Shown here: in pieces, positions 10,367 through 55,108 of the stretch
Layout of the letters: every line of letters begins with the position of its first letter
How positions within the stretch are numbered: the stretch's first letter is position 1
DNA from: a virus
Taxonomy: Duplodnaviria > Caudoviricetes
Direction: 5' to 3' (one strand)
DNA length: 64,000 bases
IMG/VR virus record: IMGVR_UViG_3300037424_000723
Location: 13,331-77,330 of that record
Translations under genes and position numbers: made by a program
Notes under the pieces: generated by a model
What the model was told of the DNA's origin: nothing
Seen by the model: only the letters and a program-made list of their open reading frames with translations
Database searches by the model: none

Positions 10367-10395
10367 ATTATACATCTTTTTACTTTTCACGTCAA
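10367..10395 (-). promoter_or_regulatory. Sigma70-type promoter facing the glycan cluster
   Basis: TTGACG-17 nt-TATAAT on the minus strand. Confidence 0.8.
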
Positions 10396-27581: not shown

Positions 27582-27609
27582 TTGCATGTCTGACATATCA
27601 TGCTATAAT
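27582..27609 (+). promoter_or_regulatory. Promoter for a leaderless HNH transcript
   Basis: TTGCAT-16-TATAAT with TGc extension; ATG 6 nt downstream at 27616. Confidence 0.65.
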
Positions 27610-27615
27610 ACTCTT

Positions 27616-29758: not shown

Positions 29759-30458
29759 TGATAAACTCCTTTTGTGTGTTTTCTCGACTATGTACCCAGT
29801 AATGACAAGGTTCACAAAGTAAAACTAAATTACAAAGTTGTCCTCTGGCTTCCCTGCAAGCAAAGCTGATTATATGATGAATATCAAGCGGGGTTTTATT
29901 TTCATTGTATTTGACTAATCCACACTTGCGACATTTACCATAATCTCTACGCCAAACGAGATTAGCGGTTTGTTTCCATTCAGGAGTACCATAGAACGCT
30001 TGACGTTCTGGAGTTATACCACCCCTCCAAACGGGACTAATTGCTCCTGTCTTACCCTTGAGCCAATGGACACCATCTTTGTTTAGATAAGGTACTCGAC
30101 CATCTTTTAATGCGGCTTGCCTAATTTTTTCTTTTGTCTCAAGTGTTGACTTTCTACCTTTAGGATTAAAAGCTTCGGGGTTGTTTTTTCTAGCCTTAAC
30201 TATATTTTGCCCACGCGGTCTAGTTGGTATACCCGCCGCTTTAAGCATGCGCCAAACACTTTTAGGTGCTCTGTTTATCAACCTGCCAATATCATAAATG
30301 CCTAACCCCTCATCTATATACTTTTGCTTTAACCATTCATCGGTAACAAGAGTATATTTTCGAGTACCCTCCGCAACACAACCTACTGAGCAATATTTTC
30401 TAGGGACATGCGCTTCAATATCGTTACCACAATTCAGGCAAATAGAATGAATACTCAT
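29742..30458 (-). CDS. HNH endonuclease
   Basis: KYCSVGC, HTH segment and CRKC...LDIHHI...NLVLLCEPCH. Confidence 0.9.
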   Translation of the reverse strand: MSIHSICLNCGNDIEAHVPRKYCSVGCVAEGTRKYTLVTDEWLKQKYIDEGLGIYDIGRLINRAPKSVWRMLKAAGIPTRPRGQNIVKARKNNPEAFNPKGRKSTLETKEKIRQAALKDGRVPYLNKDGVHWLKGKTGAISPVWRGGITPERQAFYGTPEWKQTANLVWRRDYGKCRKCGLVKYNENKTPLDIHHIISFACREARGQLCNLVLLCEPCHYWVHSRENTQKEFIIEYNN

Positions 30459-32511: not shown

Positions 32512-32689
32512 AAATCCCCCAAAACATTCATAACGAATGATACTAAATCATCAGTAGTCCATTCGTCAATTTTCACTTCTGGATTTTCAGCCAGCGACTT
32601 GATAATATCGTCAATATCTTCTACGTTGACGAATGGATATTTGATGCTCACAAGCCAGTGTACTTTTTTGAGTTTGAGTTGGTTTTTCA

Positions 32690-33995: not shown

Positions 33996-34238
33996 CTATC
34001 TATCACCATAATTAGACGGATGGCCCGGATGCCAACTCATATCATCTTCGTCATCGGCATAGGATTCATAATCATCTTCCTCTGGCGTGCCATCGGGTAA
34101 TATGTTTCTTGTCCCTTTACACTCAGGATAAGTAGAGCAACCCCAAAACTTCTTGTCATCAGACCGGCGAGTCCTGAGTACCATATCTTCATAACACTCT
34201 GGACACTTAGGAACGGGGATTGTGCGAATATTCATCAT
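33996..34238 (-). CDS. Topoisomerase C4 zinc-ribbon domain protein with an acidic tail
   Basis: CPECYEDMVLR...FWGCSTYPECKGT. Confidence 0.8.
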   Translation of the reverse strand: MMNIRTIPVPKCPECYEDMVLRTRRSDDKKFWGCSTYPECKGTRNILPDGTPEEDDYESYADDEDDMSWHPGHPSNYGDR

Positions 34239-34792
34239 TCCTCACTTAGTAAACGAATCCAAGTTTCAGCCCTTGTGATTCTACCAATAGTTGACATGGT
34301 TATACCAAACTTCATTGATAACTCCTTGTGGGTAGTGTTGCCTTTTCTGTATTCATTATAAACATCAAGAACAATATCACTCGTTAATTTCGTGGCGGGG
34401 TTTTTCTCGCCAAACAACCTTAATTCAGGATGCTTACGAAAACCACTTCTATCACCTGTTGCGTGATTCCCTCTTCCCCTGATCTCCCTATCTCTGGCAT
34501 TTTCCTTTTCTGTTCCAAGATATAAATGTTCTGGATTAACGCAATTTCTAACATCGCACATATGAAGCACATGTAATCCGTTAACTATTGGGCCGTTGTG
34601 GATAAGCCAAGAAAACCTATGAACTATCAATGTTTTCTTCTTTGAGCTTATATGTCCGTATCCTTTACGTATTTTTCTTCCTGTCCATACCCAACATGGT
34701 GTACCAACGTAGGGAACTATTGGCCCATATTTATTAACATTAGACCAAAATTTGGCAAGAACCACTTCATCATAATATGGATTATAGATCAT
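34235..34792 (-). CDS. HNH endonuclease
   Basis: CWVWTG, GYG, VHRFSW and VLHMCDVRNCVNPEHL. Confidence 0.92.
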   Translation of the reverse strand: MIYNPYYDEVVLAKFWSNVNKYGPIVPYVGTPCWVWTGRKIRKGYGHISSKKKTLIVHRFSWLIHNGPIVNGLHVLHMCDVRNCVNPEHLYLGTEKENARDREIRGRGNHATGDRSGFRKHPELRLFGEKNPATKLTSDIVLDVYNEYRKGNTTHKELSMKFGITMSTIGRITRAETWIRLLSEE

Positions 34793-37161: not shown

Positions 37162-38398
37162 TGGCACAAGTAAAACACGAGGTTACTTTTGATGGCATCC
37201 TATTTGATAGCGAGGCTGATTTAATAAACTTTCTCAAACATTCGTATTTTGCCAATAAATCCAGCGAAAAGACATTACGGGCTGATTTAGACAAATTATC
37301 TAAGAAAGTAAAAAGGTTATCGTTTGCAATAACAACGGGTGCATATAATCCTAAAAAGGACGGTGAGTGATGGATGAAAAAATAGTAGTATTTATCGTAA
37401 ATGATGAGCAATTTGGCCAGATTATCGCCCCGACCGTTGAGGGGGTGCTGGCCTATCTCAAAAGCTATCTGGCCGAATTGCCGGATGGATGTGAGATTGT
37501 TTTCGAGATAAAACGTCGGGATATGACGCTGGACGAAATAGATAAAGCGGCGGTAGTGTGACATGGCACAAGAAACTAAATGGTGTATAGCTAGTTGTAA
37601 AAAGAACGAAATAGCCCTGGCCCTAATTATTGATGGCATCCCGCAAGATTTATTGTGGTTGGCCGTACAAGAGGATGCTCAGGAATGGTTTGATAAATAC
37701 TGGCAATGGCAAACTACACGGTGCCCGTTTTTGCCAAAGGAGATACAATGCCACCCTGTAACCGTGCCTACTTCCTGACACCCTCAGCCGCCTATCGTTG
37801 CCTTGAAATCCTGGACGCGCTGGGTTGGCTATCGGGTGAATGGAGACCGGTCAAGTGCGAGTGTGGGAAGTGGCATTGTGAGTGTGTAAGATGACCGAAC
37901 TAACCCCCGCCAAAATCCATAGTCAACTCGCCTGGTTATCCCGTTACCGACGCGGCTTGTGTCGTGATTATACCGCTGCCCACCTTGCCAGCGACGAAAC
38001 CGAGATGCACAGCATCAGGGCCGAGTATCGGTTGATCGGTAACTTGATGGCTAAGTTGCGAGGCGAGTTGAGGGAATTTGAGGCATTGCAGAGTGAGCAG
38101 GTGGCGGCAGTTGTGTTTGTAGAGGAGTTACTAAATTTAAGTTGACAACGCCTCAGTTATCGGTTATAGTTGATAGATTGAGGATTGACAAAATTTAAGA
38201 AGTAGAGTATCATTATGATTAACAACCGCGTGGGGGTGACGCCCCACCTTAAGCGGAAAAGAATAAGTGGTAGAGATAAAAAGAAAACCCTTGAGTTTTT
38301 TGTCAAGGCTATTAAGTAGGACACCGGGCCGTCAACCCGGTCTCTACCCAAAAGCCGAAAGATAGCCTTGACAAAGGATTTGAGGGTTTTTTAATTCT

Positions 38399-39139
38399 AT
38401 GTCAACTTCAAAGCTACAAAAACAGGTAAAGCAGCAATTGTTTAATTATTTTTACCATTACCACATTGAAGAAAATTACCGTCCCGATTGGCTTATGTAT
38501 CAAAACGGCAACAACCTAGAGATTGATTTTTACATAGAAAGATTAAGCGTAGCAATTGAAGTGCAAGGTGAGCAACACTTTATTTACAGTCCGTTTTTTC
38601 ATAATAGCTATGATGATTTTATAGCCCAGACGAATCGGGATAAATTCAAGAAAAATATCTGCCAAGAAAAGGGTATAGTTTTTATAGAAATATCATCCCC
38701 AAGTCAGATAGATAGATGTCTTGAAAAACTACTATTGATTGAAAATAACCCAAAGGAACTAAGTCACGCATTGTTTGATAAAAAACTAAAATCAATGGTA
38801 AATGCCTTATCAAAAAGTGAACAATGCTATTTTAATTTCAATGGGATATGCAAGACGTATGAAGAAATAAAGCCCTTACTTAAAGACTACAAAAGCATGC
38901 ATGGAGACACACCTGAAAGAAGAGAACTAAGAATCCTTATCGGGCGCAAATTATCCAAAATAAACTCAAAACTAATTCATCTTAAAAAATCTAAAAACGA
39001 TAACGAGGTATCCGGTCTAGCTAAAGAATTATGGGACAAATTAAACAGTACCGGAATGTTTTTTGTATTCAAAAAATTCAAACCAAAACGCCCCGACAAA
39101 TCTGAGAGTAACTTTTTCTCTCAGTTGATTTACAAGTAA
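38399..39139 (+). CDS. PD-(D/E)XK-type endonuclease, AT-rich insertion
   Basis: YRPDWL...LEIDFYIERLSVAIEVQGEQH...DKFKKNIC. Confidence 0.8.
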   Translation: MSTSKLQKQVKQQLFNYFYHYHIEENYRPDWLMYQNGNNLEIDFYIERLSVAIEVQGEQHFIYSPFFHNSYDDFIAQTNRDKFKKNICQEKGIVFIEISSPSQIDRCLEKLLLIENNPKELSHALFDKKLKSMVNALSKSEQCYFNFNGICKTYEEIKPLLKDYKSMHGDTPERRELRILIGRKLSKINSKLIHLKKSKNDNEVSGLAKELWDKLNSTGMFFVFKKFKPKRPDKSESNFFSQLIYK

Positions 39140-40907: not shown

Positions 40908-41134
40908 GGGTTGCAATTTTAGGGGATAGGTGATATAATGGATTTAATTAAATCGTATCCAATTGAGATACAAAACCAATGCCATTTAACCCTTTGGCCG
41001 GGGTTGGCTAGGTAACGATAGCGCAAACAGCACTCCTGTTTTTATATGGGTGTTGGATTTGTAAGCAGTTTTTGCGCTATCGTTATGCTTACAAGGCCAG
41101 CCAACATCCGTATAAGAATGGGAGTTTTTTTATT

Positions 41135-41848
41135 GTGATAACCGACCTGCAAGAAATCAAGAACTTTGATAGTGATTTAGTAAAACTGAATACGGGCATT
41201 GATGAGCAAAAAATTATTATCAATGACGCAAAGGAAAGAGTTGCAAATCTAAAAAAAGAAATTCAGACTACGGCCTTTACCGCTATGCTTGAAGCAATGA
41301 AAAAGCACCCTGACAAGATACTGGCAATTACCTGGCATTTTTACTGGTGTGCCTCAGAGATAACCACCACTACTATATACAATGCTTTAAGTATGGTTTT
41401 ATCTCAAGACAAAGCCAAGCAGTCAATGGCTATGGCTAAAGACCTGGCTAGTATGGATATACGTTGCTCAGAATGTAGCAAGGTATGGACTGTAAAAGTA
41501 ACCAGTCGAAATGATTATCAAACCAAACTCAATTCACAGCGATATATAACATGTGATGAGTGTAAAGAGAAACAACATAAAGCCTATGAGATTCAACGGG
41601 CTACTATTCAAAACCGACTATATCAACTCAAGACAATGCCATATCAAGAGTATCTACAAACCGATGAATGGAAAGAAACCAGACTAAAGGCACTGAAGCG
41701 AGCCGACTTCAAGTGTCAGGTATGCAATAGACCCGATAAATTAAATGTTCACCACAGAACCTATGAAAACCGAGGCAATGAACAAAACAGAGACTTAACC
41801 GTACTGTGTGAAGATTGCCATAAACTTTATCACTTTGGAAAGGATTAG
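41135..41848 (+). CDS. HNH endonuclease
   Basis: MPYQEYLQTDEW...CQVC...LNVHHRTY...LTVLCEDCH. Probable GTG start after GGGAG. Confidence 0.88.
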   Translation: MITDLQEIKNFDSDLVKLNTGIDEQKIIINDAKERVANLKKEIQTTAFTAMLEAMKKHPDKILAITWHFYWCASEITTTTIYNALSMVLSQDKAKQSMAMAKDLASMDIRCSECSKVWTVKVTSRNDYQTKLNSQRYITCDECKEKQHKAYEIQRATIQNRLYQLKTMPYQEYLQTDEWKETRLKALKRADFKCQVCNRPDKLNVHHRTYENRGNEQNRDLTVLCEDCHKLYHFGKD

Positions 41849-41850
41849 TC

Positions 41851-42675
41851 ATGAGCGGCATAATCAGAATCGAAAAGAACAAGAATTACTCAGTAGTCAG
41901 CAATGTACCAGCAAACGATGACAAACTATCTTGGGAGGCGCGGGGCATCCTTTACTACTTGCTAACTAAACCCGATGGGTGGGAATGTCGCAATCAGGAC
42001 TTAATCAACAAAGGGCCGGCAGGGGGTGACAAGATTGAACGCATTATAGATGAGCTACAGGAACATGGTTATATCACCCGTCAACGATACCAGAAAGAAG
42101 ATGGCACATTTGATTGGGTGACTACTATCCACGAAATGCCAGTTGAACCAGAGGAAACGGTTAAAGAGCGAATAGCCAAAAAGCGAGCTACCTCTCTTGA
42201 GAAAAACCGTAGACGGGCAGCCCGTCGTAAGGGTTTAACCATAGGGGTGTTACCCACTGATGGTTCACCCACTAATGGAGAACACCCCCATATAGTAATT
42301 ACTAAATCAGTAATTAATAAAAAGAAGATTACGATTAAAAATCAAAAGGTTGAATTAGGGCCAATCGCCAAGAAACTGCTGTCTATCTGTTGTCTCAATG
42401 AGGACAGACTAACTAAGAGGCAGGGGGAATACCTAAAAGAAGCGCTTGAAATATTGATACATAAGATAAATGTAACTGAGGCCCAACTCGCCCAATTTGA
42501 CCTATTTTGGAGGCAATCCTGGCGCAAGGGCAGCCCGCCGACATTACTCCAAGTGCCTGAGCTATGGGGTGAGTTTGAACAGTGGCAAGTCAACCCCCTC
42601 CCCCCACCCAATGGCAAGCAAACCGGGCCCAACATCCAAACCATTAACGGAAGGAATACATTGGTAATAAACTGA
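41851..42675 (+). CDS. Replication initiator / replisome organizer (wHTH)
   Basis: YSVVSN...LSWEARGILYYLLTKPDGW...ELQEHGY; located before DnaB. Confidence 0.8.
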   Translation: MSGIIRIEKNKNYSVVSNVPANDDKLSWEARGILYYLLTKPDGWECRNQDLINKGPAGGDKIERIIDELQEHGYITRQRYQKEDGTFDWVTTIHEMPVEPEETVKERIAKKRATSLEKNRRRAARRKGLTIGVLPTDGSPTNGEHPHIVITKSVINKKKITIKNQKVELGPIAKKLLSICCLNEDRLTKRQGEYLKEALEILIHKINVTEAQLAQFDLFWRQSWRKGSPPTLLQVPELWGEFEQWQVNPLPPPNGKQTGPNIQTINGRNTLVIN

Positions 42676-43670
42676 TGCTACAAATAGACCACAAAAAGCT
42701 AAACCAGATAACCAAAAATGGATCGTTATTTTTATTCTCACCCGCAGAGGCAGCTACCTACTATGTGCAGGATGTAGAGGAATTATTAGCCGCCCCGGTG
42801 ATAGATTGGGGAGCCAGGTCACTAGATTCCAATATCACCCCAATGCGACCCGGTGAGCAGCCTACCTACGTGATAGCCCGGCCCGGTAACGGCAAAACGT
42901 CTTGGATGATTTACATGGCCCGTCGCCATGCTATGCGGATCACAGAACCTAAAAAATGTGTCATCTATGTCACCTGGGAAGAAACGGTAGAATCAATAGA
43001 GATGAGCATACAGGCCGGCGTAGACTATACCTCTGAGCAAGTGGCATGGGGAACGGTAGATATTGAGGCCGTGAAGCGCAATGCGGTTAAACGCGCCAAC
43101 CTGCCTATATTTATCATCGGCCAGTCGGCGGTTAAAGACAGAGACAAACGCAAACCCCCGATGACCTTAGAGCGCGTCTATGATACCATCCTGGCCTTAT
43201 ACTATGAGTTTGGAATTGAGCCGGTATTGATCTGCTTTGACTACCTGCAAAAGATACCCATTGAGCGTGCCAAAACCAGAATTGATGAAGTAACCGAGGC
43301 TGTATTCAAAACATCAGAATTAACCAAGATTATCAGAAGTCCGATATTGGTAGGCGCACAGGCCACCCGTGATGTAGATGACCAGGGCTTACCCATTCCA
43401 ACTCTGGCCGGCGCACAGTGGACAAGCTCAATTGAGCAAGAGGCTTTTAGGATGATCGGTCTACTCAGGCCGATAACCGTAGCCCCCAAGAATGGCGTAC
43501 CTTTGCAAACCATCACGGTAGACAACCGAGAATATACGGTAGACAAAAACCTAATGCTTTTGAGACTACTTAAGCAGAGAAAATACTTCCCCGCTAAATC
43601 AATCTATCCTGTACACTTTAAGCCTGATTTATTTGAGTTGTCAGATTATCAGATAATGGGATTGGATTAA
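42675..43670 (+). CDS. DnaB-like replicative helicase
   Basis: ARPGNGKTS, FDYLQ, GAQATR and SSIEQEA. Confidence 0.88.
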   Translation: MLQIDHKKLNQITKNGSLFLFSPAEAATYYVQDVEELLAAPVIDWGARSLDSNITPMRPGEQPTYVIARPGNGKTSWMIYMARRHAMRITEPKKCVIYVTWEETVESIEMSIQAGVDYTSEQVAWGTVDIEAVKRNAVKRANLPIFIIGQSAVKDRDKRKPPMTLERVYDTILALYYEFGIEPVLICFDYLQKIPIERAKTRIDEVTEAVFKTSELTKIIRSPILVGAQATRDVDDQGLPIPTLAGAQWTSSIEQEAFRMIGLLRPITVAPKNGVPLQTITVDNREYTVDKNLMLLRLLKQRKYFPAKSIYPVHFKPDLFELSDYQIMGLD

Positions 43671-44014
43671 TGAATCACGCCCCCGCTTATCACCGTTACC
43701 TCTACACCTGGCAATGGCGTTTCCGGCGCCGGCTGCGGCTGCTATGGGCCGGCCACAAGTGCGAGAATTGCGGCAGTCGCAAGGGCTTACAGGCGCATCA
43801 CCTAACATATGAGCGCCTTTATCATGAGCGCATATCCGATTTACAAATATTGTGCGAGGTATGTCACCCGCTAGCAGATGCCCAGCGCAGGTATGACAAA
43901 GCACTTCAAACCTATTGCGTCAAGCGATGGGGGCCGATGTGGGTACAAGTTGTTAGGCCAGATGAGGCTAAGGCGGAATTTGATAAGTGGTTGACAACAA
44001 AACAGGAGCAATAG
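43670..44014 (+). CDS. Small HNH endonuclease
   Basis: CENCG...QAHHLTY...LQILCEVCH. Confidence 0.85.
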   Translation: MNHAPAYHRYLYTWQWRFRRRLRLLWAGHKCENCGSRKGLQAHHLTYERLYHERISDLQILCEVCHPLADAQRRYDKALQTYCVKRWGPMWVQVVRPDEAKAEFDKWLTTKQEQ

Positions 44015-44016
44015 AA

Positions 44017-44595
44017 ATGAAAACCATCCTCTCTCTTTTTGATTATTCCGGCAATTGGTCTAAGCCATACCGGGAGGCTGGTTACAATGTCATTCAGGTA
44101 GACATCAAACTTGGTATTGATATTCTCACCTTTGATTATCAGGCCATCCCGGAAATTTACGGAATCCTGTGCGCTGTGCCTTGCACTGATTTTGCTGTAA
44201 GCGGAGCGCGTTGGTTTGCTGAAAAGGATAAGGATGGCAGAACTGAATTGAGCATTAGCCTAGTTAAAAAGTCTCTTGAGATTATCAATTACTTTAATCC
44301 GGTATTTTGGGCATTGGAAAATCCAGTAGGTAGGATAGCCAGATTAGTACCGGAGTTGGGTAAGACGAGTCTGATTTTTCAGCCATGTGATTATGGCGAT
44401 GCCTATCGCAAGCGCACATGCTTATGGGGTAAATTTAATCATCCCATCAAAAACCCAGTTGAGCCATTGGGTATTCGTAAGGGTCAACCCGATGAATGGT
44501 ACTCTAAAATGGGCGGCAAAAGTGAAAAGACAAAAGCTTATCGCAGTCAAACCCCGTTAAAGTTTGCACAAGCCTTTTATGAGGCAAATCAATAA
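44017..44595 (+). CDS. Short C5-cytosine DNA methyltransferase
   Basis: LSLFDYSG, AVPCTDF, ALENPVG and KRTCLWG. Start at MKTILS. Confidence 0.82.
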   Translation: MKTILSLFDYSGNWSKPYREAGYNVIQVDIKLGIDILTFDYQAIPEIYGILCAVPCTDFAVSGARWFAEKDKDGRTELSISLVKKSLEIINYFNPVFWALENPVGRIARLVPELGKTSLIFQPCDYGDAYRKRTCLWGKFNHPIKNPVEPLGIRKGQPDEWYSKMGGKSEKTKAYRSQTPLKFAQAFYEANQ

Positions 44596-44613
44596 TTCCC
44601 CCATAACAAAAAT

Positions 44614-44641
44614 AGAGCCTACTCGTTATTGAGTAGGCTCT
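44614..44641 (-). terminator. Intrinsic terminator for leftward transcription
   Basis: AGAGCCTACTC-gttatt-GAGTAGGCTCT with a U-run on the minus strand. Confidence 0.75.
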
Positions 44642-45033
44642 CCCCAAGAAACCTAAAACCTAGTGATAAAAAATTACCCCCGGTCAAGCGGGCCGGTACG
44701 CTTTTGTCACCTATAGTGGGCTAGGCTACATTAGACAATAACACGCACGTATAAAGAAATCCTCATTCTTCAACTTAAGTTTTGCCACAGTTTATTAGCC
44801 TGTCACCTCGCTTTCTTAGTTTCAAAGGTGAGCGCTTATTACTTCTGACTGTCGCCTGTTTGGGCCGTTGGTAAGTACGCTCGGTGATACGCACCTATTG
44901 ATAAACAGCGGGCCGGATTCGATTCCGGCTTGATCCTTTCACGCGATTCAGGGTTTACGTGTTCCCTCGCGTCCGTTCAGGTAGCACACGTTCCGATACC
45001 TACGATTCCTAACATCGCTGCCGCTGCTTATTC

Positions 45034-45537
45034 CTAAATATGAGACCAGGTTCTTTTACTTATTACATAGCATATAGTAACCTGGGTTACATTAAAGATA
45101 ACCGATAATTCTTTTGATGTATATTTTTTATCCTGATAGAACTTTCTAATTTGCAAGACCTGCTCTGGGTTTAATTTTGCGGTAGGAGTTTTGTTTCTAT
45201 TTATAAATTCTGGTATTCTTCTACCTTTTTTGATGGCATCTTGATTATTATCTTTATGAGTACCCAAGAATAAATGAGACGGATTGATACATTTGCGATT
45301 ATCACAGGTATGACAAACTAATATATCAATCGGTAAATCAATATCATTGGCTAAACTATATGCTACCCTTGAGGCAGTAATAAGATTACCGTCTACCCAA
45401 AATCTACCGTATCCTGAATTACCTACTTTTCCTTGCCATTCCCAACATTCATCAGGATTACCAATTTTTACTTTAGACCAAAATCTATTTATTTGGTCTT
45501 TACTTAATTTAGGTATATTTCTAATTTTTAATTTCAT
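45034..45537 (-). CDS. HNH endonuclease
   Basis: CWEWQG, GYG, ASRVAY and VCHTCDNRKCINPSHL. Confidence 0.92.
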   Translation of the reverse strand: MKLKIRNIPKLSKDQINRFWSKVKIGNPDECWEWQGKVGNSGYGRFWVDGNLITASRVAYSLANDIDLPIDILVCHTCDNRKCINPSHLFLGTHKDNNQDAIKKGRRIPEFINRNKTPTAKLNPEQVLQIRKFYQDKKYTSKELSVIFNVTQVTICYVISKRTWSHI

Positions 45538-45680
45538 TATTCACTTTTTAATGGGCCGGTAAATCCAATGTTTCTAGCCGACGGTTCTCTGGCGCTTTTG
45601 CGCCCTTGACATTCTGGCATAGTCGCCAGGGGATTTACCAGCCCAGTCAGCCCTTGCGGGTTGTGACCTTATTCATAATC

Positions 45681-45713
45681 GTTTCAATCCACGCCCCCCG
45701 TGTGGGTTGTGAC
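45681..45713 (-). CRISPR. Solitary type I-C-like CRISPR repeat, with a degenerate second copy at about 45635-45667
   Basis: GTCACAACCCACACGGGGGGCGTGGATTGAAAC. Then 13 nt later GTCACAACCCGCAAGGGCTGAC. No cas genes in the window. Confidence 0.65.
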
Positions 45714-45995
45714 CGGACTCCAATATGAACGATGTTTTGCCGATTGCCGCCATTCAACACGAGGGCCAAAACAATTAAAGCAGATGAATAAAAAACCCCT
45801 ACTTTCACCCATGTGGCCGTAGGTTTTAATCTGTCTGCCTTCGTTGTTTTGCCCACAATTCCGGCAAACATTTATTTGGGTTTTTTCTCGCTCATCAGTT
45901 ATGACGATCATAATAACCCTGTTGTTAAACTTTGCCAGCGCATGCCGCTTAAGCGTACACTTACCCCTCACTGGCTTGTAACCGTTTTTTAGCAC
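45684..45995 (-). CDS. Small Zn-finger protein whose stop codon lies in the CRISPR-like repeat
   Basis: CRNC...CFNC; ends SPVTTHTGGVD*. Confidence 0.55.
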   Translation of the reverse strand: MLKNGYKPVRGKCTLKRHALAKFNNRVIMIVITDEREKTQINVCRNCGQNNEGRQIKTYGHMGESRGFLFICFNCFGPRVEWRQSAKHRSYWSPVTTHTGGVD

Positions 45996-46422
45996 TAGGC
46001 TGGGTACAGTACGGTCAAACCCGCCGTTATTGGTCAGTCCGGTTTATCTGATCTTATCGGAGATAACGGCCCATTGGCCCTTTCTTCACTTCCCGTTTTT
46101 CCTAATATTGCAAGGCGGCCCAGGTACGGGATAAGCGACCTGTATTTTGCCCTAACTCGGCAATACTTCCCACTTCATATCCGATGAGTTTGTGTGACAC
46201 TAGGGCCATAATCATTGCGCCGATTACCCCCGGCGTTGGGGTTTGCCTCACTAAACCGTTTAGCCCATATAGAGCCTTGCGTCTACCCGTGCGTGATTAG
46301 CACGTAGCAAGTTATCACGGTTTATGAAGCTGTTAAGTTGGCTCAATTATTGCCTGTTCTTTTCGGGCGGTCTATCAATGATGCCATTTCCCTAAAGCGG
46401 TCTAATGATTAAGCCTGAAAAC

Positions 46423-46451
46423 AGTATAACCGATAATGGATTGAATTGCAA
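46423..46451 (-). promoter_or_regulatory. Leftward promoter for the Zn-finger/repeat/HNH transcript
   Basis: TTGCAA-17-TATACT with the ATCGGT discriminator motif. Confidence 0.7.
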
Positions 46452-46563
46452 TACTTTTTTGATTAAGAAAACTTAAAATTAAGCAAACTCATAAAAATAT
46501 GCTTGCATTTTTAATTCAGGTATGTTAATATTAGGTATCTTAATTTTCGAGGTATCAATGACA

Positions 46564-46605
46564 TCCTCCCCTGACAAGATGTCAGGGGTTTCCGACAGCC
46601 GGAAC
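46564..46605 (+). repeat. Twin-hairpin repeat, copy 1
   Basis: tcctCCCCTGACaagatGTCAGGGGtTTCCGacagcCGGAA. Confidence 0.75.
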
Positions 46606-46633
46606 TTATTTACAAAACGAGGCATAGCGTAGC

Positions 46634-49398
46634 GTGAGCGCAAAATCTTATCCTTATAGTTTGAGCAATATTCCCGGCAGTTGGAAGTACTTGCAAACGG
46701 CCGAGGAACCAAAGGCCAGTTTCGTTTGTCCAGATTGTGAAGAACGCAAATATCTACTAGATCATAGTGTCAATAGTGATGGAGCAGTATCCCCTAGCGT
46801 AATTTGTGATTGCGATTTTCACGAATGGATTGTCTTGGAAGGATGGAACCCTGATGGCAACGCATTGTGATATAGGAATATCTCCAAAGGTGGCCTCAGT
46901 CCTGGCTATAAAACCAACGATAGATTATTTGTGTAATGACTACTCAGATGGCGGTAGTAGCATCAGACAATCAGATGTTGATTTCGATTGGACATTGCCC
47001 GCCGCCGTTGATTGTCCGAAATGTATTAGGGTACGTGATTTGTGGCGAGGTGGGAAAACACTGAAGCAGGCTCGTAAAATTGTAAAATCATCCCCCGCCC
47101 AGCTAGAAGCCGGGATGGGAGCGACCAAACTTTAGAGAGGAGTAGGTAAGCCTTGCTCCTCCCCTGAGAATATCTCAGGGGTTTCCGCAAGGCTGGAAAT
47201 CTATGAGCAAACGAATTAACGCAGTAGTAACAGATGCTAAGTTTGATTTTATCGAAAGTGTCTCAAAAGGTAATCGCTCATTTGTTATCAACGAGGCACT
47301 GCGGGCGTTATTTGAAATGCAGCGTCTTTTTGGGATAACGACTTGGGGCGACAAATGCTTGATTGCTTACGAGATTATGTTGCTCTTTTCCGGCTCTCTC
47401 GCCGAGGCACAAGAGGCGCGGCAGGCGCTGGCAAGGCTACAGCAGTTATACCCGAAGAAGTGGCAGGAATTGATAAAGGATGGTAAATGATGACTAAAAC
47501 CCCCTACACTAAGCGCACGTTGCCAGATACCCCCATAAAAAAGGGGCAATGCTGGTACTCTAACAGTGACAACCGACGTATATTGCTCATTGAGCGTGTT
47601 GATATTGGCACGTTCAAAGCCTACGGAATCAACACAAAAACACTTCGCCCATTTGCCATTTCTATCCTGCGATTTGGCAGCGGTCGAGCAAGCGGGTTTA
47701 GCTTGCTAACGAGAGGTGAATGATGGCGATTGAGCTTAAATTAAACAGTGGCAAAATGAGAACAAGGGCCCGGGGGGAAGATTGGGAATGGTATACAGCT
47801 ACTGTCAATTTACTGGTGGTAATCCACGCCCACAACCGAACTGATACCGGACGCTGGGCATACGTTATCGGTTCATTGGCTGAATTGAAAAGCAAAAATA
47901 CCTATGTTGATAAAAATGAGGCGTATAAGGTAGTCATACAACGCCTCAAAATATTAGTGGAAGATTTATTAGCCGAGGTGAATGATGCACAATAAGCTAC
48001 CCACCCTGCTCGCTGAATTAAGCGAGCGAGCACCGGATGTGTGTAAATCGCTGGCCGGCTGTTATGAGATCGGTGTATACCGTTTTTGGATAGGTGGCTA
48101 TGATGAGCTATACGCCGTTGTTTTTGATGATAATTCCTATGCTGTAGGCCAACCCGCCCTAGACTGGTTGCAGGGCGCCCTGCAACGTGCGATTGAGGCG
48201 CGGGGGTGGTACTTTCTCATAGAGCGATGGCCCGACGAGGCGAGAGTAAAATTGGTACTGTTGCCATCTGGACAGCAACGGCATGCTGATGCCCCCCATA
48301 CAACAGTGGCACTACTAGCCGCCCTGGTGGCGGCGTTAAAGAGCGAGGTAAAATGACGTTGTTCAAAATAGGTGAACCGGTAACGTGGACTTCAACTGCG
48401 TCCGGGGTTGACAAGACAAAGCGGGGCGAGGTTTTGGTGATTATACCTGCCTTTACTCGCCCTTACAAGGTTATGTATAGATTTAGTCCCCAATGGCAGA
48501 CAAAGTACCACAATATCAGTGTGCCAGGCTATGGTATTTTACCCCGTAATCATGAGAGCTATGTAATCGCAGTACCGGCCAAAACCAGCAAGGGCAAAAC
48601 TAAACTGTATTGGCCGGTTGTGAGTTTGTTGGAAGAGGTGAATGATGCCTTACGATAGCGAAGTGAGCCGCTTACAAGGTGAGATAACCCAGCTTGAAAA
48701 AGAGATAGAGGCAATCCAAAATGCTATCGAGTATGTAAAATCTTACAGCGTAAAGCCTACTACATATTTATATAGCACTATCAACCGTTTAAAAGACAAC
48801 TTGGAGCATAAACAAATGAAGCTGTCAACACATCGGCAGCACACAAAGGAAAGTGGGGTAAAGTATTAATGCCCAGCGTCATATCACTACAGGCTAGAAT
48901 CTTACGGGTAAATCACATTTACTTATCTCATTACGTGTCTGGTTTTGATGACAATTTTGATATTCGGTTAAGTCAAAAACTAGCTGAGTTTGATTACCTG
49001 GATTTGTCTACCATTAAAAAGGTAGTCAAAAATATTAAGACAAACTTCTTTAGAGTCCATAAAGTAAATCGGGAACAATACGCACAACGATTATTTGATG
49101 ACTTAAGAGCTTGCGAGTTGCCAGGTGAGCAACCCAAAAAAGAGAAGGGTAAAGTAAAAAGATGACTAAAAAAGAAATTCAGCAACTAATGGCAATTGTT
49201 AGGCCGGCAATTATCGCGGTACATGGCCGTCAACCATTGACCTTAATCGGCTATGAGATTGGCTTGATTTATCAAAATACTACCAAGTGTTACCAATTAG
49301 CAGTAGATGGCAAAGATGGCAATAAGTTCTTTGTCGAGTTGGTAAACGACAAAAACAAAGTACCGCAGGTAACGCGGTTAGGGAAGGTGGGAGAATGA
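46634..49398 (+). other. Cluster of small hypothetical ORFs, including an RHH-like protein at 47203..47490
   Basis: Coupled ORFs; MSKRINAVVTDAKFDFIESVSKGNRSFVINEALR resembles an RHH. Confidence 0.6.
47157..47199 (+). repeat. Twin-hairpin repeat, copy 2
   Basis: tcctCCCCTGAGaatatCTCAGGGGtTTCCgcaaggctGGAAA. Confidence 0.75.
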
Positions 49399-50240
49399 GC
49401 AATATTCAACTCGAAAAACAGTATCCATTTTCTAGGCCTGGTTTAACTCTGCAAATTTTCATACTTGGTCTAATCGTTGTCAGCGGCTTAATCGCTCTGT
49501 TCTTTGCCGCTTTCCACGCCTTTAGATTGGTTGCGGAACCCACTCAGGCTTTTTTCGCCGCGCTGGTAATCGAAGCCGGCCTGATTGCCGAATGTCTGGC
49601 TATCATCAATAAGCCCCGCTCGGTTGCGCCCTGGTTGGGTTTGGTCATTAGCTACGTGGTATCAGGCACTTACAACTATACTCAGGCAGCAAAAGCTGGA
49701 GAAGGGTTGGGCGGTTGGGAGTTGGGCGCGTTGGCCTTTGGCCCGCTATCTGCGCTGGCTGTTGTCTCGCTTGCTTTTGGTAATGAGTTAAGAAGCTACC
49801 AGGAGCGGGTGGAAGATTGGAGCAAGACGCGGGCCGGTTGGGTGGAAGGTGAGTGGAGAAGATTAGAGACTTTGGCAACCGAAAGGGAACAAAAGCGGCT
49901 AGAAGTTGAAGCGCAACAGAAGCAAGCTCAACTCGAATTACAGGCAAAACAAAAACAAGCCCAGCTCGAAGCGGAGCAAAAACACGCCGAAAAAATGGCG
50001 AGAATTGAAGCGAAAAAAGATAAAAAAGTAACGCGAAATAAACCAACTAAAAAGCGAATCTCAAAGATAGAGAAGCGTGAAATATCAATCAGTATAATCC
50101 GCGAAAATCCGTTAATTTCGGGTGCTGAATTAGGACGGCAATTAGGTTCAAGCGAACGCACTGGACAAACAATTTTGAATGAACTTACCGAGGCCGGCGC
50201 AATCCATCGCAATGGATCGGGCTGGCAGGTGCTGCGATGA
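49395..50240 (+). CDS. Multi-TM membrane protein with coiled coil and C-terminal wHTH (DUF2637-like architecture)
   Basis: Three to four hydrophobic segments, a Q/E/K-rich coil and ISGAELGRQLGSSERTGQTILNEL. Confidence 0.6.
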   Translation: MSNIQLEKQYPFSRPGLTLQIFILGLIVVSGLIALFFAAFHAFRLVAEPTQAFFAALVIEAGLIAECLAIINKPRSVAPWLGLVISYVVSGTYNYTQAAKAGEGLGGWELGALAFGPLSALAVVSLAFGNELRSYQERVEDWSKTRAGWVEGEWRRLETLATEREQKRLEVEAQQKQAQLELQAKQKQAQLEAEQKHAEKMARIEAKKDKKVTRNKPTKKRISKIEKREISISIIRENPLISGAELGRQLGSSERTGQTILNELTEAGAIHRNGSGWQVLR

Positions 50241-50947
50241 GCAACATCTATGACGAATTATCCAAAGGTGAGGTATTCGGCTTCATTGACCCCCTCATAG
50301 CTGAAATTCAGCACTACATCAAAGGTCCCTCAACCGTGTTGAGCGTACCGGCCAGCGTGTGGAGCCGGGGCGATGTCCGCAAGTTCCTAAAGTCCAAAGG
50401 GTTAGACGCGTGGGGATTCGTGCTTATCGGGGATGACATCACATTCAGCGTTAAAAAGCAACAGGCTAAGTTGATCGAGATGTTGCTCAAAGATAATCAG
50501 CCGCCAGTTAAAAAGGGCTGGTGGGCATGGTGACAATGCAAAATACAACTAACTGGCAATTTAGCGATATGCCAACCGCACAAATTATCTATATCCGCCT
50601 TGATGCCATTAACGAGGTAACTGAGGCGATTATATTGATGTTAGGCGCAACTATCCGATTATTTGATAGCCTGAATAGATTACTGCAATTAACACTCGTT
50701 TTAATCGCCATTGTGTTGGAATGTGCTGAGATGGCAGTATCGGTTTGCAATCGGATTTATAGGGTTTATGCAGAGATTGACAGGCAATTAGTGAGGTGGT
50801 TTAGTCGGCTGGTCTATGTGCCAGTGTATCGGGGGATAGGCTAATGGACTTCGCAATCATCATAGCCACTTGCATCTGTTCGATTGGAGCTATCGCCGGA
50901 ATTGTGATTTTTATTATGGCTATTTTGTATATTGTGGATAAATTTTA

Positions 50948-52186
50948 ATGCTCACTCGCCTGATAATTGCCCTTACCATAATCACCATAGCCATCTGCGT
51001 TATATTCTCAGATGTGATCTCGGTATGGCTGCAAGTGGTAGCAATAATTATAGCGGTATTTTTGATGGGGGTTTCAGGTATCACCTTATGGATAGGCACA
51101 GAACGTGCCCGCAGCGAGAGAGAAGATAGATTATTGAAAGAAAATCAGCGCAAGGCAGCAGGGTTTACAACCCAGATAGACGGGTACGGGATGCTACATT
51201 TGATAAATATTATCAATGGACATACTCAAAATCTAACCCTTGACGCCAGAGCATACCGAAATGGGCATTATGAAGCGCCTACCCCCGATGAGGTAAAAAC
51301 CTTACACGCTATTTTAGCGTCTCGCCATTCTACTACTACCCCAAAAATGGTAGTAGAAGGCTCTACTACCGCTATTTCTCAGGTAGTAGAGGTTGATCTA
51401 CTGGCTATTTTCACTCAGCCTTCGCAAAGTTACGCTTTCATTGCCGGTCAACAGGTGGGTAAAACGTTCCAGGCCCGGCGCATTGCTCAACACTGGATTA
51501 ACTCAGGCATTACCCCTATTGTTATCGCCCCAAAATGGGATCGTGGGGAATGGGAAGGTTGTCGGTTATTTGGGGGTGAATATGATTTTGATAAAGTGGC
51601 CGGGGGGATGCGCCGGATTGAATACCTTGCCCAAACTCGCCATGCTAACAAAGAGATGAGCCACAAAGAACACCCTTTGCAACCCGTGTTTTTTGATGAT
51701 TGGACGGGCATCAGGGCGAAATTAGAACAGGATGCGGAGAAGTTTATAGTTGATGCCACCACGTTTTACGCCTCGGTAAATATCATCCTGTATTTTATGC
51801 TACACGCTGACACAGCAGCAACCTGGGGCGTTGGCAAGGTAGGGGCAGCCCTACATCAGAATTTTATCAAGCTATTTATTGAGCCAGGATTCAATGAGGC
51901 CGGAATGATTGACCGTACCCGAAATGTTGGCTGGCTCCTGATGGCAGGGCAGAGCAAAAAAGACCGGCGTCAAGTACGCTTGTTTAATGGTGTGGGGCAG
52001 CCGCTATTGATACCAGACTATGTAAATCAGCCAGTGACAATACAACCCCGTGATAGTGACGCGTTATTTGTTGATCTGGTAAAAATCGGTAGAAGTCGCA
52101 ATGAAGCCAGCCTAGAAGCGTGGGGGAGAACCTACGCCGGTAACTTGGTTGAGCGTGGTAAACGATTACTAGGGGAAATAGAATGA
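50948..52186 (+). CDS. Membrane-anchored P-loop ATPase (FtsK/TraB-like, divergent)
   Basis: Two N-terminal TM helices, AGQQVGKT Walker A and VFFDDW Walker B. Confidence 0.55.
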   Translation: MLTRLIIALTIITIAICVIFSDVISVWLQVVAIIIAVFLMGVSGITLWIGTERARSEREDRLLKENQRKAAGFTTQIDGYGMLHLINIINGHTQNLTLDARAYRNGHYEAPTPDEVKTLHAILASRHSTTTPKMVVEGSTTAISQVVEVDLLAIFTQPSQSYAFIAGQQVGKTFQARRIAQHWINSGITPIVIAPKWDRGEWEGCRLFGGEYDFDKVAGGMRRIEYLAQTRHANKEMSHKEHPLQPVFFDDWTGIRAKLEQDAEKFIVDATTFYASVNIILYFMLHADTAATWGVGKVGAALHQNFIKLFIEPGFNEAGMIDRTRNVGWLLMAGQSKKDRRQVRLFNGVGQPLLIPDYVNQPVTIQPRDSDALFVDLVKIGRSRNEASLEAWGRTYAGNLVERGKRLLGEIE

Positions 52187-52810
52187 CAAAGACCTATATC
52201 ACCATAACTATTTTAACAACGATGTTTTTTCAATTTGGCCTAACGTATTTTATCGGCATCTCATTACAGCATGACACTGGATTATGGTCAGTTATCACGA
52301 TTGCCTATTCCGTTGCATTGCCCTTTTGGTCACATCCCTTAGATGACTGGATTCACTTTCAAATCACCCTACACAAAGAACGCATCCAGCGCCGCCGGAA
52401 TTATGAACTATTCCGGGACGGTGTTAAATCCGGCTTAATTGCCACCGATGAGCAGTTCGATAGTGAGGCGAGGAAGGTGATTAAATGAAAATATTATTAT
52501 GGAAATGGCAACTATCAATTGAGATTACCCCCAAAGATAGGTACTATGAAATTATTGGGGGTTATACGGGAACCGTTATAGGTTGGACTTCTGACCCAGA
52601 GGGGGTTTTGGAAGAAGAACCTAAGGCAACCTTTAGGGAGATTAGTAAGCGTGAATACGAGAAACGCATAAGCGAATAACGGTTCGCTTTTGCAAGAGGG
52701 CAAAGTACCATGAGGCATTTTATTAAGTACTAATTGCTGATGACATACCCCTCATAATCGGTTATACTGAGGTCATAAGTAAATCAGTAGCAACTCAGGA
52801 GCAACGAAAA

Positions 52811-53895
52811 ATGAGCGCCACAACATACGATGCAAACGGAAACCAAGTAGGTAGCACATCTGGCATTTGCGCTCGTTGTGGCGCTCATATCAAGCACATT
52901 TTTACCTGGGACGGTCAAACCTACGGCTCTGAGTGTATCGAAGTTGTAACCGGCATTGGTCGAGATTATCAGGTTTTTAATGGTCGTAATCTGGATTTAG
53001 AAGCCAGCAAAGCCCGTAAGGCTCAGGCTGAAACTGATAAAGCTACTCGCCTCGCTGCTTATGAGGCCAAACGCCAGGCTGCCCGTGAAGTTCAGCAAGC
53101 TAACGTCAAGCGTTTTGAAGAAATAATTTACCTCCTAGAAAATAGCTCAGGTGACTTTTGCGCCTCGGTAGCTTGCCAAATTAAGCAAGCTGAATATTCA
53201 ACCGAACTTTACAATATCTTGAGTGATAGAGCTTTTGAGATAGTTAGCGAGATTTACGGCAAGACAGCAGGCCGCAAAGGTAGCAAGGGCTATGAGGCCA
53301 GAGTAAACGAGTTTTACCAAAAATACGGAGAGAAGAAGGAATAACCCCCCCCGGCGCTATCTGGGCAACAGGAGTAATGTGATGTTTTACGTAGAATTTC
53401 CCAAAAATGAAGGTATAGATTTTGACGGCGGTTTTGAATTTGAGTACCTGGCAAACGGCGGGGTTAAGGTTTACCCAATCTCACCAGAGGGTGAACCGTT
53501 CCGAGTATCACGAAAGATTTATGCCCAGATGTGTCAATATGCCAGAAATCAATTGCCGGGGTTGCAAGCCGAATGTGATGCAATGATGGCAGAAAGTAAG
53601 TATTAAAATGAATAACCCTACCTGCCCCCTATGCCACGCAGACAACCCGCAACCCGCAACCTTGATAGTTGGCAGCAGGCGCAAAGGTGACGGCTGGGAA
53701 GCGTATACCGGTTATGTCTGCGAGGTTCACGATCAAGAGTATCGTGAACTGATGCGAGTTACCAAACCTTGCCCGATGTGCAAAGAGCCAATGATTGCAA
53801 TCGGTGAAATATTTACCATTGCCGATGAGCCACAAAGTTGGCTACGGTGCGCCAAAGGACATTATAATTTATACTCAGATAAAGCTATTGAGTGA
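52811..53895 (+). other. Small operon of three hypothetical genes behind a repeated promoter/RBS module
   Basis: 52811..53344 (CARC...SEC), 53379..53606 and 53608..53895 (Cys-rich). Confidence 0.6.
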
Positions 53896-54307
53896 GGTAC
53901 ATGTACTAAGGAGATTACAATGAAAACCAAACAGCAAGCTGCCAAACAAGAATACACTGATTACCTTGAAGCCATCCGCAACCGGCTTACCGCTTTACAA
54001 AATGATGTTGCCTCAGCCATGGGCGATTGATGCTATTATAAATATTCTGGAAGAGGTAAGAGATACCAAGTCGCTATAACAGGCGGCTTTTTTGTTACCC
54101 CCCTCCCGGCTAATCCTCCAAAACCGCTTCCCTGGCAACTAACGCCAGGCCCATTAGCAAAACAAGACCAGATGTGCTATAATACATATGTCACCCAAAG
54201 TAAGATAATTGCTTAAAATATGCCGATGTGCTATTGTTAGTTTAGCGCCTTTGGCCCGCTTACTTTGGGTGACACTTAAGTTGAGCAATGGGCCGGAGGT
54301 GCTTTTT

Positions 54308-55108
54308 ATGTTGCAAGTAATTGGGATTTATCGGATCACTAATAAGATAAACGGCAAGGTCTATATTGGAAGTTCTGCCAATATTCCACAAAGGCTAAAG
54401 AACCATTTAGCGGAATTACGTAATGGTCATCATCGCAATGGACATCTACAAAACGCTTTCAGGCTTTACGGGGAAACGGCCTTTGATTTTGGCGTAGTAG
54501 AATACACTGGTGACGTTTCTGATTTAATACCTCGCGAGCAATACTGGATTGACAGCATCGGGTCTGACAAGCTTTACAATATTTGCCTCGTTGCCGATAT
54601 ACCTCCAAGTTGGAAAGGTAAAACTATATCCCTTGAATCAAGGACGAAAATATCACTTGCGAATACAGGAAAGATTCGCACGCCAGAACAAAATCAGAGA
54701 AACTCACTTGCGCGTAAAGGACGGGTATCGGTCAATAAAAAGCCGGTAAAGCAAATTGACCTAACCACTGGCAATGTCGTGGCAACCTTCACCAGTGCAA
54801 CCGAGGCCGGATTCGCTCTTGGGCTAAAGTATCCTGAGAAAATAAGCGGTGCATGTCGAAGCGCGGGCCAAAAAACAGCAGGCTATCGGTGGAGGTATAT
54901 AGAGAACGAAATCCCAATAATCGAGAATACCTACAAAAGCAAAGCCGTAGAGCAAATTGACCCTGATACCGGGGAAGTGATAGCGACTTTCCTTAGCATT
55001 CTCAAAGCGGCCTCCGGGGTCGGATTAAATATCTCCGCTAATATATCTGCGGTCTGTAAAGGAAAACGAAAGACAGCGGCGGGTTACGGCTGGCGATACG
55101 CTTCTTAG
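54308..55108 (+). CDS. GIY-YIG homing endonuclease with NUMOD3/NUMOD1 repeats
   Basis: GIYRITNKINGKVYIGSS...R...H; two VKQID...TF.S...A....ISGAC/ISAVC...TAGYRW repeats. GGAGG RBS before ATG 54308. Confidence 0.92.
   Translation: MLQVIGIYRITNKINGKVYIGSSANIPQRLKNHLAELRNGHHRNGHLQNAFRLYGETAFDFGVVEYTGDVSDLIPREQYWIDSIGSDKLYNICLVADIPPSWKGKTISLESRTKISLANTGKIRTPEQNQRNSLARKGRVSVNKKPVKQIDLTTGNVVATFTSATEAGFALGLKYPEKISGACRSAGQKTAGYRWRYIENEIPIIENTYKSKAVEQIDPDTGEVIATFLSILKAASGVGLNISANISAVCKGKRKTAAGYGWRYAS

Follow-up and report, generated by a model that had tools for sequence, protein, structure and literature searches.

A single structural design precedes seven nuclease genes, of at least four families and behind host-type consensus promoters, in one uncultured Caudoviricetes phage from sediment metagenomes (IMG/VR record IMGVR_UViG_3300037424_000723, 77,330 bp, with direct terminal repeats at its ends). 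The window analysed here, 64,000 nucleotides (nt) long, covers bases 13331-77330 of this record; coordinates refer to the window unless they carry an L-number, and L002 denotes the genome bases that precede it. The feature is real and lies at the RNA level, and its most likely role is that of a cis-regulatory leader: the long stems upstream of the nuclease genes probably belong to structured 5′ leader RNAs close to the promoter, through which the expression of the nucleases is gated in cis. Homing endonucleases are abundant in phage genomes and, to our knowledge, the way in which a phage tolerates many of them is known in detail only for T4-like phages.

The whole record encodes 12 nuclease-type genes of the HNH, HNH_3, GIY-YIG, EndoVII-like and PD-(D/E)xK-like families (Pfam, PHROGs), whose products are 145-266 amino acids (aa) long with a single nuclease motif each, and seven of the twelve carry a structured leader (E1-E7). 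Scanning the record for perfect stems of at least 11 base pairs (bp) with loops of 20-100 nt returned 12 inverted repeats, compared with 1.3 in shuffled sequences, and stems of at least 14 bp numbered six, compared with none. The loops cluster at 43-56 nt. Seven of the 12 repeats fall within the ~2.3% of the genome that lies no more than 150 nt upstream of nuclease genes (binomial p ~3e-9), and the other five are found in coding regions. Those at 16914-17014, 32558-32637, 58682-58750 and 63329-63431, with arms of 11-15 bp and loops of 47-79 nt, are above shuffle expectation.

A first-pass annotation of the window had placed long stems before four nuclease genes, and all of them are present (38284-38312/38362-38390, 41013-41027/41071-41085, 45552-45566/45631-45645 and 54189-54204/54259-54274). 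Its observation that the shape recurs before unrelated nuclease families holds with Pfam and PHROGs assignments and extends to three more cases, E3, E1 and E2. Similar stems are not equally common before other genes. Compared with dinucleotide shuffles, the leaders fold with z-scores between -3.0 and -9.0, and when 146-nt upstream regions are considered, the minimum free energy (MFE) reaches z <= -3.3 in seven of the nine nuclease genes that have an upstream non-coding region and in two of 30 non-nuclease regions, both of which are the opposite strands of E1 and E2 (Mann-Whitney p 8e-4). In a search for interleaved helices, in which four arms follow the order A<B<A′<B′ and B′ ends at most 40 nt from the start codon, the same seven of nine nuclease leaders score above all of their shuffles (43-90, against shuffle means of 8-34), as do none of 28 non-nuclease regions. 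For seven of nine nuclease upstream regions (MFE z <= -3.3) versus none of 28 non-nuclease ones, Fisher's test gives p 3.5e-6.

The design is fullest in E1, E2, E4, E5 and E7, in which a near-consensus sigma-70 promoter is followed by A, B, A′, B′, a U-tract and the start codon. Helix A:A′ is perfect, with 12, 14, 15 and 16 bp in E1, E2, E5 and E7, respectively, and 8 bp in E4; its loop of ~45-55 nt contains B, and B′ lies beyond A′. In E1, E2 and E7, helix A starts ~6 nt past the TATAAT. The B:B′ helices are 11-25 bp long and include G·U pairs, and the spacer from B to A′ is 1-3 nt in E1, E2 and E7, as in H-type pseudoknots. Directly after B′ comes a U-tract of 5-7, and the start codon follows 0-18 nt further; the tails after the hairpin read UUUUUAUU in E1 and UUUGUAUUUU in E2, and are U6 in E4, U7 in E5, U5 in E7 and U6 in a homologue of E5 from another phage, G001, which is described below. 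The Shine-Dalgarno (SD) sequence is within B′ in E4, E5 and E7, and after the U-tract, with B′ just upstream, in E1 and E2. A simple terminator scan, the loop limit of which is 3-8 nt, misses these hairpins. Promoter-like sites between the arms were not found in the leaders, all predicted promoters being upstream of the entire structure. The best sigma-70 matches of the intergenic DNA are those ahead of the nuclease leaders, and the strong promoters of non-nuclease genes (19176+, 35466-, 35494+ and 25605-) are followed by short, unstructured leaders of 20-40 nt.

Leader E5 (40911-41134, plus strand) displays all of these parts. Its promoter (40911-40939) is followed by a hairpin, P0 (40988-41005), which carries the conserved block CCCTTTGGCCGGGG, and by a perfect 15-bp helix A (41013-41027/41071-41085). 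Helix B (41032-41056/41101-41125) has 25 bp including G·U pairs and is extended by helix C (41058-41067/41086-41096) to a 35-bp hairpin. The loop pairing noticed at first pass is confirmed: the anti-SD ACUCC (41032-41036) pairs with the SD GGGAG at 41120-41124. The U7 (41125-41131) stands shortly before the GTG start at 41135. As modelled, the A:A′ fold and the fold with B:B′ and C:C′ would be alternatives, or B:B′ could be joined as a pseudoknot. The gene behind this leader (41135-41848, plus strand) encodes a 237-aa HNH nuclease with a C-terminal HNH motif (Pfam PF01844; PHROGs HNH families), and 2 nt past it begins a replication initiator/loader-like gene, followed by DnaB.

Leader E7 (54154-54307, plus strand) has a promoter with a TG-extended TATAAT at 54154-54183, and its perfect 16-bp helix A (54189-54204/54259-54274) begins at approximately +1, 6 nt past this hexamer. 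Helix B (54245-54257/54290-54302) comprises 13 bp, three of them G·U, and includes the SD GGAGG (54295-54299); here too the proposed pairing of the loop GGCCC with the GGGCC adjoining the SD is found. The U5 (54303-54307) is directly followed by the ATG at 54308, at which the start of the GIY-YIG gene is better set than at the start given in the list of open reading frames (ORFs). This homing-endonuclease-type gene (54308-55108, plus strand; Pfam PF01541, E 5e-13, and PF22083) also encodes an I-HmuI NUMOD-like DNA-binding domain.

In leader E4 (38142-38398, plus strand), two promoters with 11/12 matches each (38142-38170 and 38185-38213) precede a small hairpin at ~38230-38247 and an 8-bp helix A (38269-38276/38341-38348), the A′ arm of which sits in the loop of the long hairpin B:B′ (38284-38312/38362-38390; folding z -9.0). 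The B′ arm includes the SD-like GAGGG at 38382-38386 and ends in U6 (38387-38392), 6 nt ahead of the ATG at 38399. The nuclease-like product of the gene at 38399-39139 (plus strand) has a PD-(D/E)xK-type motif, EIDFY...AIEVQGEQH, and matches PHROGs 559/9084/7140 (E 5e-13 to 3e-7), a domain known from homing or intron-encoded endonucleases, as well as, weakly, DUF2726.

Leaders E1 (L002:2914-3035) and E2 (L002:10719-10837) lie before an HNH_3 gene and an EndoVII-like gene, respectively; their promoters share GACTTAAA at -35, and the A helices of E1, E2 and E7 have a TGTCAC core in common. Both cassettes, each composed of promoter, leader and nuclease (L002:2880-3035 and L002:10685-10837), are antisense insertions within a minus-strand operon. 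A search for relatives of the structural protein encoded next to E1 found none.

Two leaders, E3 and E6, are simpler and consist of one long branched hairpin near the start codon, with a U4 in E3 only. E3 (10212-10395, minus strand) follows a TTGACG-17-TATAAT promoter at 10395-10367 and forms perfect 11-bp arms (10308-10318/10246-10256), or 17 bp with one bulge, around a 51-nt loop, followed by UUUU; its upstream region folds with z = -3.7. The gene downstream (9627-10214, minus strand, TTG start at 10214) encodes a 195-aa GIY-YIG nuclease (Pfam PF01541, E 7e-7). E6 (45538-45650, minus strand; folding z -5.6) lies inside a longer minus-strand unit, and its branched hairpin has a 15-bp stem (45631-45645/45552-45566) with a single G·U on the minus strand and an inner GGCGC/GCGCC hairpin. 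It ends, without a U-tract, 14 nt before the ATG at 45537 of a 167-aa HNH_3 homing-endonuclease-type gene (45034-45537, minus strand; Pfam PF13392). Directly upstream of E6, at 45646-45713 (minus strand), GTCACAACCCACACGGGGGGCGTGGATTGAAAC resembles a type I-C clustered regularly interspaced short palindromic repeat (CRISPR), followed by a partial second copy; cas genes were not seen alongside.

The first-pass annotation had placed the action of these elements at the RNA level on the nuclease-sense strand, and the folds agree with this. The sense strand folds more stably than the antisense strand by 8.7-16 kcal/mol in E2, E4, E5 and E7, and by 30 kcal/mol in the G001 homologue. Together with the G·U pairs, this bias indicates that at least B:B′ has been under selection as RNA, read in the direction of the nuclease gene.

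Compensatory changes point in the same direction. E1 and E7 are paralogous leaders, identical in 81 of 137 aligned columns, in which B:B′ has undergone seven double and two one-sided changes in 13 pairs with none broken, and A:A′ one double change; single-stranded stretches are also kept, e.g., UGAGC.AU in the interval from A′ to B′. Their downstream proteins, of the HNH_3 and GIY-YIG types, have no similarity. The leader sequences, noted at first pass as differing, are not all unrelated: the arms of E3-E6 differ from one another, and E1 and E7 are paralogues.

The second comparison involves G001 (IMGVR_UViG_3300022682_000042, 82.5 kb; L089-L093), the sole source of a DnaB relative found in the IMG/VR search. 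Only four proteins are detectably shared between the two phages, with amino-acid identities of 56% for DnaB and 42% for the primase. At the corresponding place in G001, where the primase gene meets the replication-initiator gene, there is a homologous leader. Four exact blocks are collinear in E5 and this leader: CCCTTTGGCCGGGG, ACTCCTGTTTTT, GGCCAGCCA and ATGGGAGTTTTTT, with lengths of 14, 12, 10 and 13 nt. Independent MFE folds place 34 pairs in the same alignment columns, of which 19 are identical, three have one-sided and 12 double changes. Helix A:A′ is perfect in both and differs in sequence, with five of 10 pairs doubly changed when registered on the common ATAG core. The HNH proteins behind the two leaders differ in architecture and have 35% identity over the 54-residue HNH motif only. 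Global nucleotide identity is uninformative here, as unrelated ORFs also reach ~62% under the alignment parameters chosen. A covariance model of the two leaders detected no further copy in 249 kb of sequence, and pattern searches at the DNA level, for the blocks of E5 and the arms of E1 and E7, returned only chance matches or iteron arrays of unrelated phages. The decamer TTGGCCGGGG, part of the conserved P0 hairpin, occurs at ~20 sites in G001 and at four in this genome (e.g., window 5687, 19367(-) and 40994), mostly in coding DNA.

A DnaB alignment search of metagenomes gave 13 loci. In the closest of them, L096 and L097, the next gene begins within ~10 nt of the primase, with neither an HNH gene nor a leader between primase and loader, which indicates that promoter, leader and HNH gene of E5 form an inserted cassette. 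L096 (DnaB 45%) also has two paralogous leaders, at L096:4030-4300 and L096:7810-8090, upstream of early or replication genes that do not encode nucleases. Both are ~250 nt long and comprise a promoter, a small hairpin with a U tail and a stem of 10-11 bp around a 60-nt loop. Iteron arrays inside replication-initiator-like genes of relatives, of the CATATGACTCCGAGTCATATG type at L097:4308-4401 and of the GTTCTGTCCGACAGAAC type at L107:8528-8607, are probably replication origins.

Conservation upstream of homologous nucleases, which the first-pass annotation had looked to, is not seen; the leaders are kept instead as a family of their own. A search of IMG/VR with the GIY-YIG protein gave 80 loci with identities of at most 43% (best segment at most 48%), and long stems upstream of these relatives are not enriched (0.135/kb vs 0.169/kb background). 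Upstream folds reach z <= -3.3 in three of 40 cases, and the interleaved test is at its p floor in four of 65. The GIY-YIG leaders of L026 and L028 have the classic T4 arrangement, with the promoter within the hairpin. In an unrelated 133-kb phage, the GIY-YIG leader L027:2860-3005 shows the same interleaved topology with unrelated sequence: GCGGCAAC, part of a 5′ hairpin, is the complement of GUUGCCGC, which lies within the loop of a 13-bp hairpin, and a U-rich run and AUG come after this second hairpin.

Homologous leaders before unrelated nucleases are what would be expected of a generic cis element. Among the roles offered at first pass, the switch fits best, whether it acts on translation or on transcription, and the following course of events can be proposed. 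A transcript would start at the near-consensus sigma-70 promoter, and the strong helix A:A′, which encloses the 5′ arm of the second helix, would form first. Once B′ has been made, B:B′ and the U-tract could act as a terminator that stops transcription, as a mask of the ribosome site, or as both (OFF). As long as A:A′ persists, B would be trapped in a closed loop, and B:B′ would have to arise as a strained pseudoknot or wait for A:A′ to open (ON or delayed OFF). Helix A:A′, formed first, may delay or modulate the B:B′ gate or, as part of a pseudoknot, strengthen it. The balance of the helices, together with any factor that might shift it, would determine how much of a potentially genome-damaging nuclease is made from a strong early-type promoter, keeping the dose low and perhaps limited in time. 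The proposed folding order is consistent with MFE predictions for the growing chain, in which A:A′ is held until B′ is nearly complete and then flips to B:B′ with the loss of 17-47 pairs (at nt 99 in E1, 113 in E2 and 176 in E5). In E7, unlike in the other full-form leaders, B:B′ is not the more stable fold and A:A′ stays optimal.

The distribution of the leaders suggests that they belong to an expression slot rather than to a nuclease family. An extension of this idea, which we regard as unlikely, is that promoter and interleaved leader constitute a portable, phage-owned slot with an exchangeable nuclease ORF, in which the helices would serve as a kinetic, pseudoknot-type timer and the leader might itself be a recombination site for ORF exchange. 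The leader would then persist and covary as unrelated nuclease ORFs are swapped behind it, as E1 (HNH_3), E7 (GIY-YIG) and perhaps E2 (EndoVII-like) may illustrate, and E5 with a different HNH protein in two distant phages; fresh transcripts would be briefly translatable and then locked shut. If this holds, the regulatory RNAs of such slots would form a class not yet described for mobile nucleases.

Several observations weigh against the reading of the leaders as cis-acting gates. The class is not uniform, as E3 and E6 have no clear B:B′ helix or SD masking and E6 has no U-tract. Five of the 12 nuclease genes have no such leader: three are in operons (29742-30458, 34235-34792 and 43670-44014), and two with promoters of their own (2078 and 27615) have a very short leader only. 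E4 and E5 head multi-gene replication operons and may regulate more than the nuclease. In L096, L097 and L107, long-stem, large-loop leaders precede non-nuclease replication genes, and the design may be a lineage habit of early transcription units that in this phage mostly concerns nuclease cassettes. Not a single G·U pair occurs in ~90 A:A′ pairs of the seven elements, which would be compatible as well with a palindrome acting as DNA or with the binding of a protein; the need of a short helix for stability, recognition as double-stranded RNA or a role in DNA or protein binding could all account for its perfection. Each covariation test compares two sequences only. Promoters, starts, termination and ribosome sites are predictions from DNA; the sequencing runs listed as containing the sequence are all metagenomic DNA, and two of them, from sediment, may be the source sample. 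A sensing input, whether ligand, leader peptide, tRNA or protein, was not identified for the leaders.

Leader peptides were considered in their own right and rejected: none is conserved, the frame in which small ORFs cross the conserved block is not the same in E5 as in G001, and E1 and E7 lack a common upstream ORF.

Among the rival explanations, the one that survives best, although it is rather improbable, is that the unit from promoter to U-tract is a gene for a stable small RNA (~105-190 nt), which might inhibit the nuclease, serve it as a decoy or regulate in trans, with the nuclease expressed by read-through. Type III toxin-antitoxin systems have such a layout, with antitoxin RNA, terminator and toxin in succession, and a strong promoter followed at once by a terminator-like hairpin is what a small-RNA gene looks like. 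The single-stranded stretches kept in E1 and E7 (e.g., UGAGC.AU), and the P0 loop and GGCCAGCCA, which E5 has in common with G001, would also suit an RNA with a function of its own. However, homologous leaders precede non-homologous nucleases in both comparisons (E1/E7 and E5/G001), contrary to a specific pairing of RNA and protein, and on this ground the suggestion of an RNA antitoxin, cofactor or guide made at first pass is disfavoured. The leaders have no tandem repeats, the proteins are DNases (HNH, GIY-YIG) rather than endoribonucleases, and in three leaders the SD is part of B′, which links the structure to the translation of the ORF.

Less probable still, the perfect A and A′ arms could be binding sites for a protein, either the nuclease itself or a common phage regulator, as a DNA palindrome at or past the transcription start, an RNA hairpin or both, the last in the manner of Aca2. 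This would account for A:A′ being always perfectly Watson-Crick paired while B:B′ tolerates G·U, and for helix A beginning at approximately +1 with a common TGTCAC core in E1, E2 and E7. Precedents are the autorepression by I-TevI (PMC2988022) and the binding of structured motifs in the 5′ untranslated region (UTR) by Aca (PMC13551039). In the window, the octamer TGTCACCC has eight copies against 1.5 expected, a number that none of 100 shuffles reaches, and may be a protein-binding word. Nevertheless, the arms are completely different among E3, E4, E5 and E6; E1 and E7 share arms and precede unrelated nucleases, which excludes autoregulation for that pair; their core-to-core spacings of 70 bp (E1) and 78 bp (E7) are not in helical phase; no regulator gene is co-encoded in the single-gene cassettes; and B:B′, its G·U pairs and the U-tracts are left unexplained. 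The octamer sites are at 15581, 16830, 35090, 39337, 42024, 43862, 54189 and 54267, mostly inside genes, and TGTCAC occurs 42 times in the window against 20 expected.

There is only a slight chance that the long helices are processing or stability elements, i.e., RNase III sites, which are known in T7 early mRNAs and the lambda N leader, or protective 5′-terminal stem-loops. The helices of 25-31 bp in E4 and in the OFF fold of E5 and the position of helix A at the predicted 5′ end of E1, E2 and E7 would agree with this, and processing by RNase E has been described for the segB, segG and mobE transcripts (PMC2988022). An A:A′ helix of 10-16 bp closing a 50-nt loop is short for RNase III, though, and the interleaved second helix, the SD pairing and the U-tracts are not accounted for; such roles might, however, come on top of the gating. 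Finally, it is very improbable that the repeats are chance products or neutral, functionless DNA palindromes left by the insertion of mobile nuclease cassettes, since, despite five further perfect inverted repeats inside coding regions and too few relatives for strong statistics, the enrichment over shuffles is about ten-fold, the association with nuclease leaders is strict, and both the strand bias and the compensatory changes, found in each of two independent comparisons, speak for selection. Group I introns, retrons, integron attC sites and miniature inverted-repeat transposable elements were also considered and rejected, as there is no Rfam intron match, no reverse transcriptase or integrase nearby, no common sequence or target duplication, and the promoters are upstream.

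One further element, E8 (52811-52888, plus strand), is a doubtful relative. It has a 14-bp perfect stem with a 50-nt loop behind a promoter with 10/12 matches (52740-52768) and an SD; the stem begins at the ATG of a 177-aa ORF (52811-53344), the codons for MSATT being complementary to those for RCGAH, and the antisense fold is more stable than the sense fold. The protein has no Pfam or PHROGs family and only viral hypothetical clusters in the ESM Atlas, and it was not counted as a nuclease. At the HNH gene 27615, the TTGCAT-17-TATAAT promoter stops 6 nt before the ATG (27586-27620), and its mRNA is possibly leaderless. The ORF at 19644-20102 has a weak match, under the cut-off, to a phage ProQ C-terminal-like domain (E 7e-5); that a ProQ/FinO-type RNA binder might be a trans factor for terminator-bearing leaders is pure speculation.

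If confirmed, cis-acting leaders of this kind would represent a compact regulatory RNA module that combines a terminator, control of the ribosome site and an enclosing helix. They would help to identify nuclease cassettes under such regulation in phages from metagenomes and might become a tool for placing tight limits on the expression of toxic genes.

Comparison with known RNA families gave no assignment. Neither the window nor L002 or L083 had a match to an Rfam 15 covariance model at its gathering score, no tRNA or tmRNA was detected by ARAGORN, and megablast with 38-56 kb found no match among GenBank phages. A permissive Rfam scan of 38-55 kb returned only sub-threshold, chance-like matches, none on E5-E7; one of these, to Pseudomonadales-1, overlaps E4 (38189-38342) with 23.5 bits against a gathering score of 68.

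Among known systems, ToxIN and IscB/TnpB likewise encode a structured RNA beside a nuclease gene, and in ToxIN a terminator also lies between the RNA and the toxin ORF. Unlike in ToxIN, the leaders have no tandem repeats and the proteins are of HNH, GIY-YIG or PD-(D/E)xK type instead of endoribonucleases; unlike in IscB/TnpB (HEARO, omega RNA), the proteins are small DNases without RuvC, there is no HEARO match, and the leaders are common to unrelated nucleases. Phage acr-aca operons have structured 5′ UTR motifs that are bound by Aca regulators and restrain strongly promoted early operons (PMC13551039). The leaders share with them the strong early promoter, a structured 5′ UTR restraining a gene that is harmful if over-expressed, and inverted repeats near the predicted transcription start that could be read both as DNA and as RNA. 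They differ in their far larger loops and in that no helix-turn-helix or ribbon-helix-helix regulator is co-encoded in the cassettes.

Attenuators and riboswitch platforms resemble the leaders in being promoter-proximal, with a terminator-like hairpin and U-tract before the ORF and an earlier helix that may compete with it; in the leaders, both helices are conserved by covariation (E5 vs G001). Unlike in attenuators, A:A′ encloses the terminator arm (A<B<A′<B′) instead of overlapping it, so that the competition would be topological or pseudoknot-like; an attenuator-like overlap exists in E1 only, where 5 nt of A′ are within the inner terminator stem. Unlike in riboswitches, there is no conserved aptamer-like core across the leaders.

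By analogy, the closest precedent is found in the ribosome-binding-site hairpins of T-even homing endonucleases. In T4 I-TevI/II/III and segB and in Aeh1 mobE, hairpins sequester the ribosome site; mobE and segF have terminators; and these endonucleases are controlled at several levels, through the choice of promoter, terminators, RNase E and autorepression (PMC2988022). As in these phages, a stable hairpin directly upstream of a homing-endonuclease-type ORF pairs with the SD in E4, E5 and E7, although not in E1 and E2, nor clearly in E3 and E6, and terminator-like elements would limit the endonuclease transcripts, the proposed purpose being a low nuclease dose in both. In contrast to the T-even arrangement, the predicted promoter is upstream of the whole structure, so that every transcript would have the 5′ arm, and it is of the sigma-70 consensus (host, early) type instead of the middle or late type. 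Furthermore, the sequestering helix is interleaved with another one, the perfect A:A′, and is followed by a U-tract beside the start codon, and the same design is present at seven genes of one genome. What is new with respect to the T-even systems is the position and class of the promoter, the interleaved second helix and the U-tract at the start codon.

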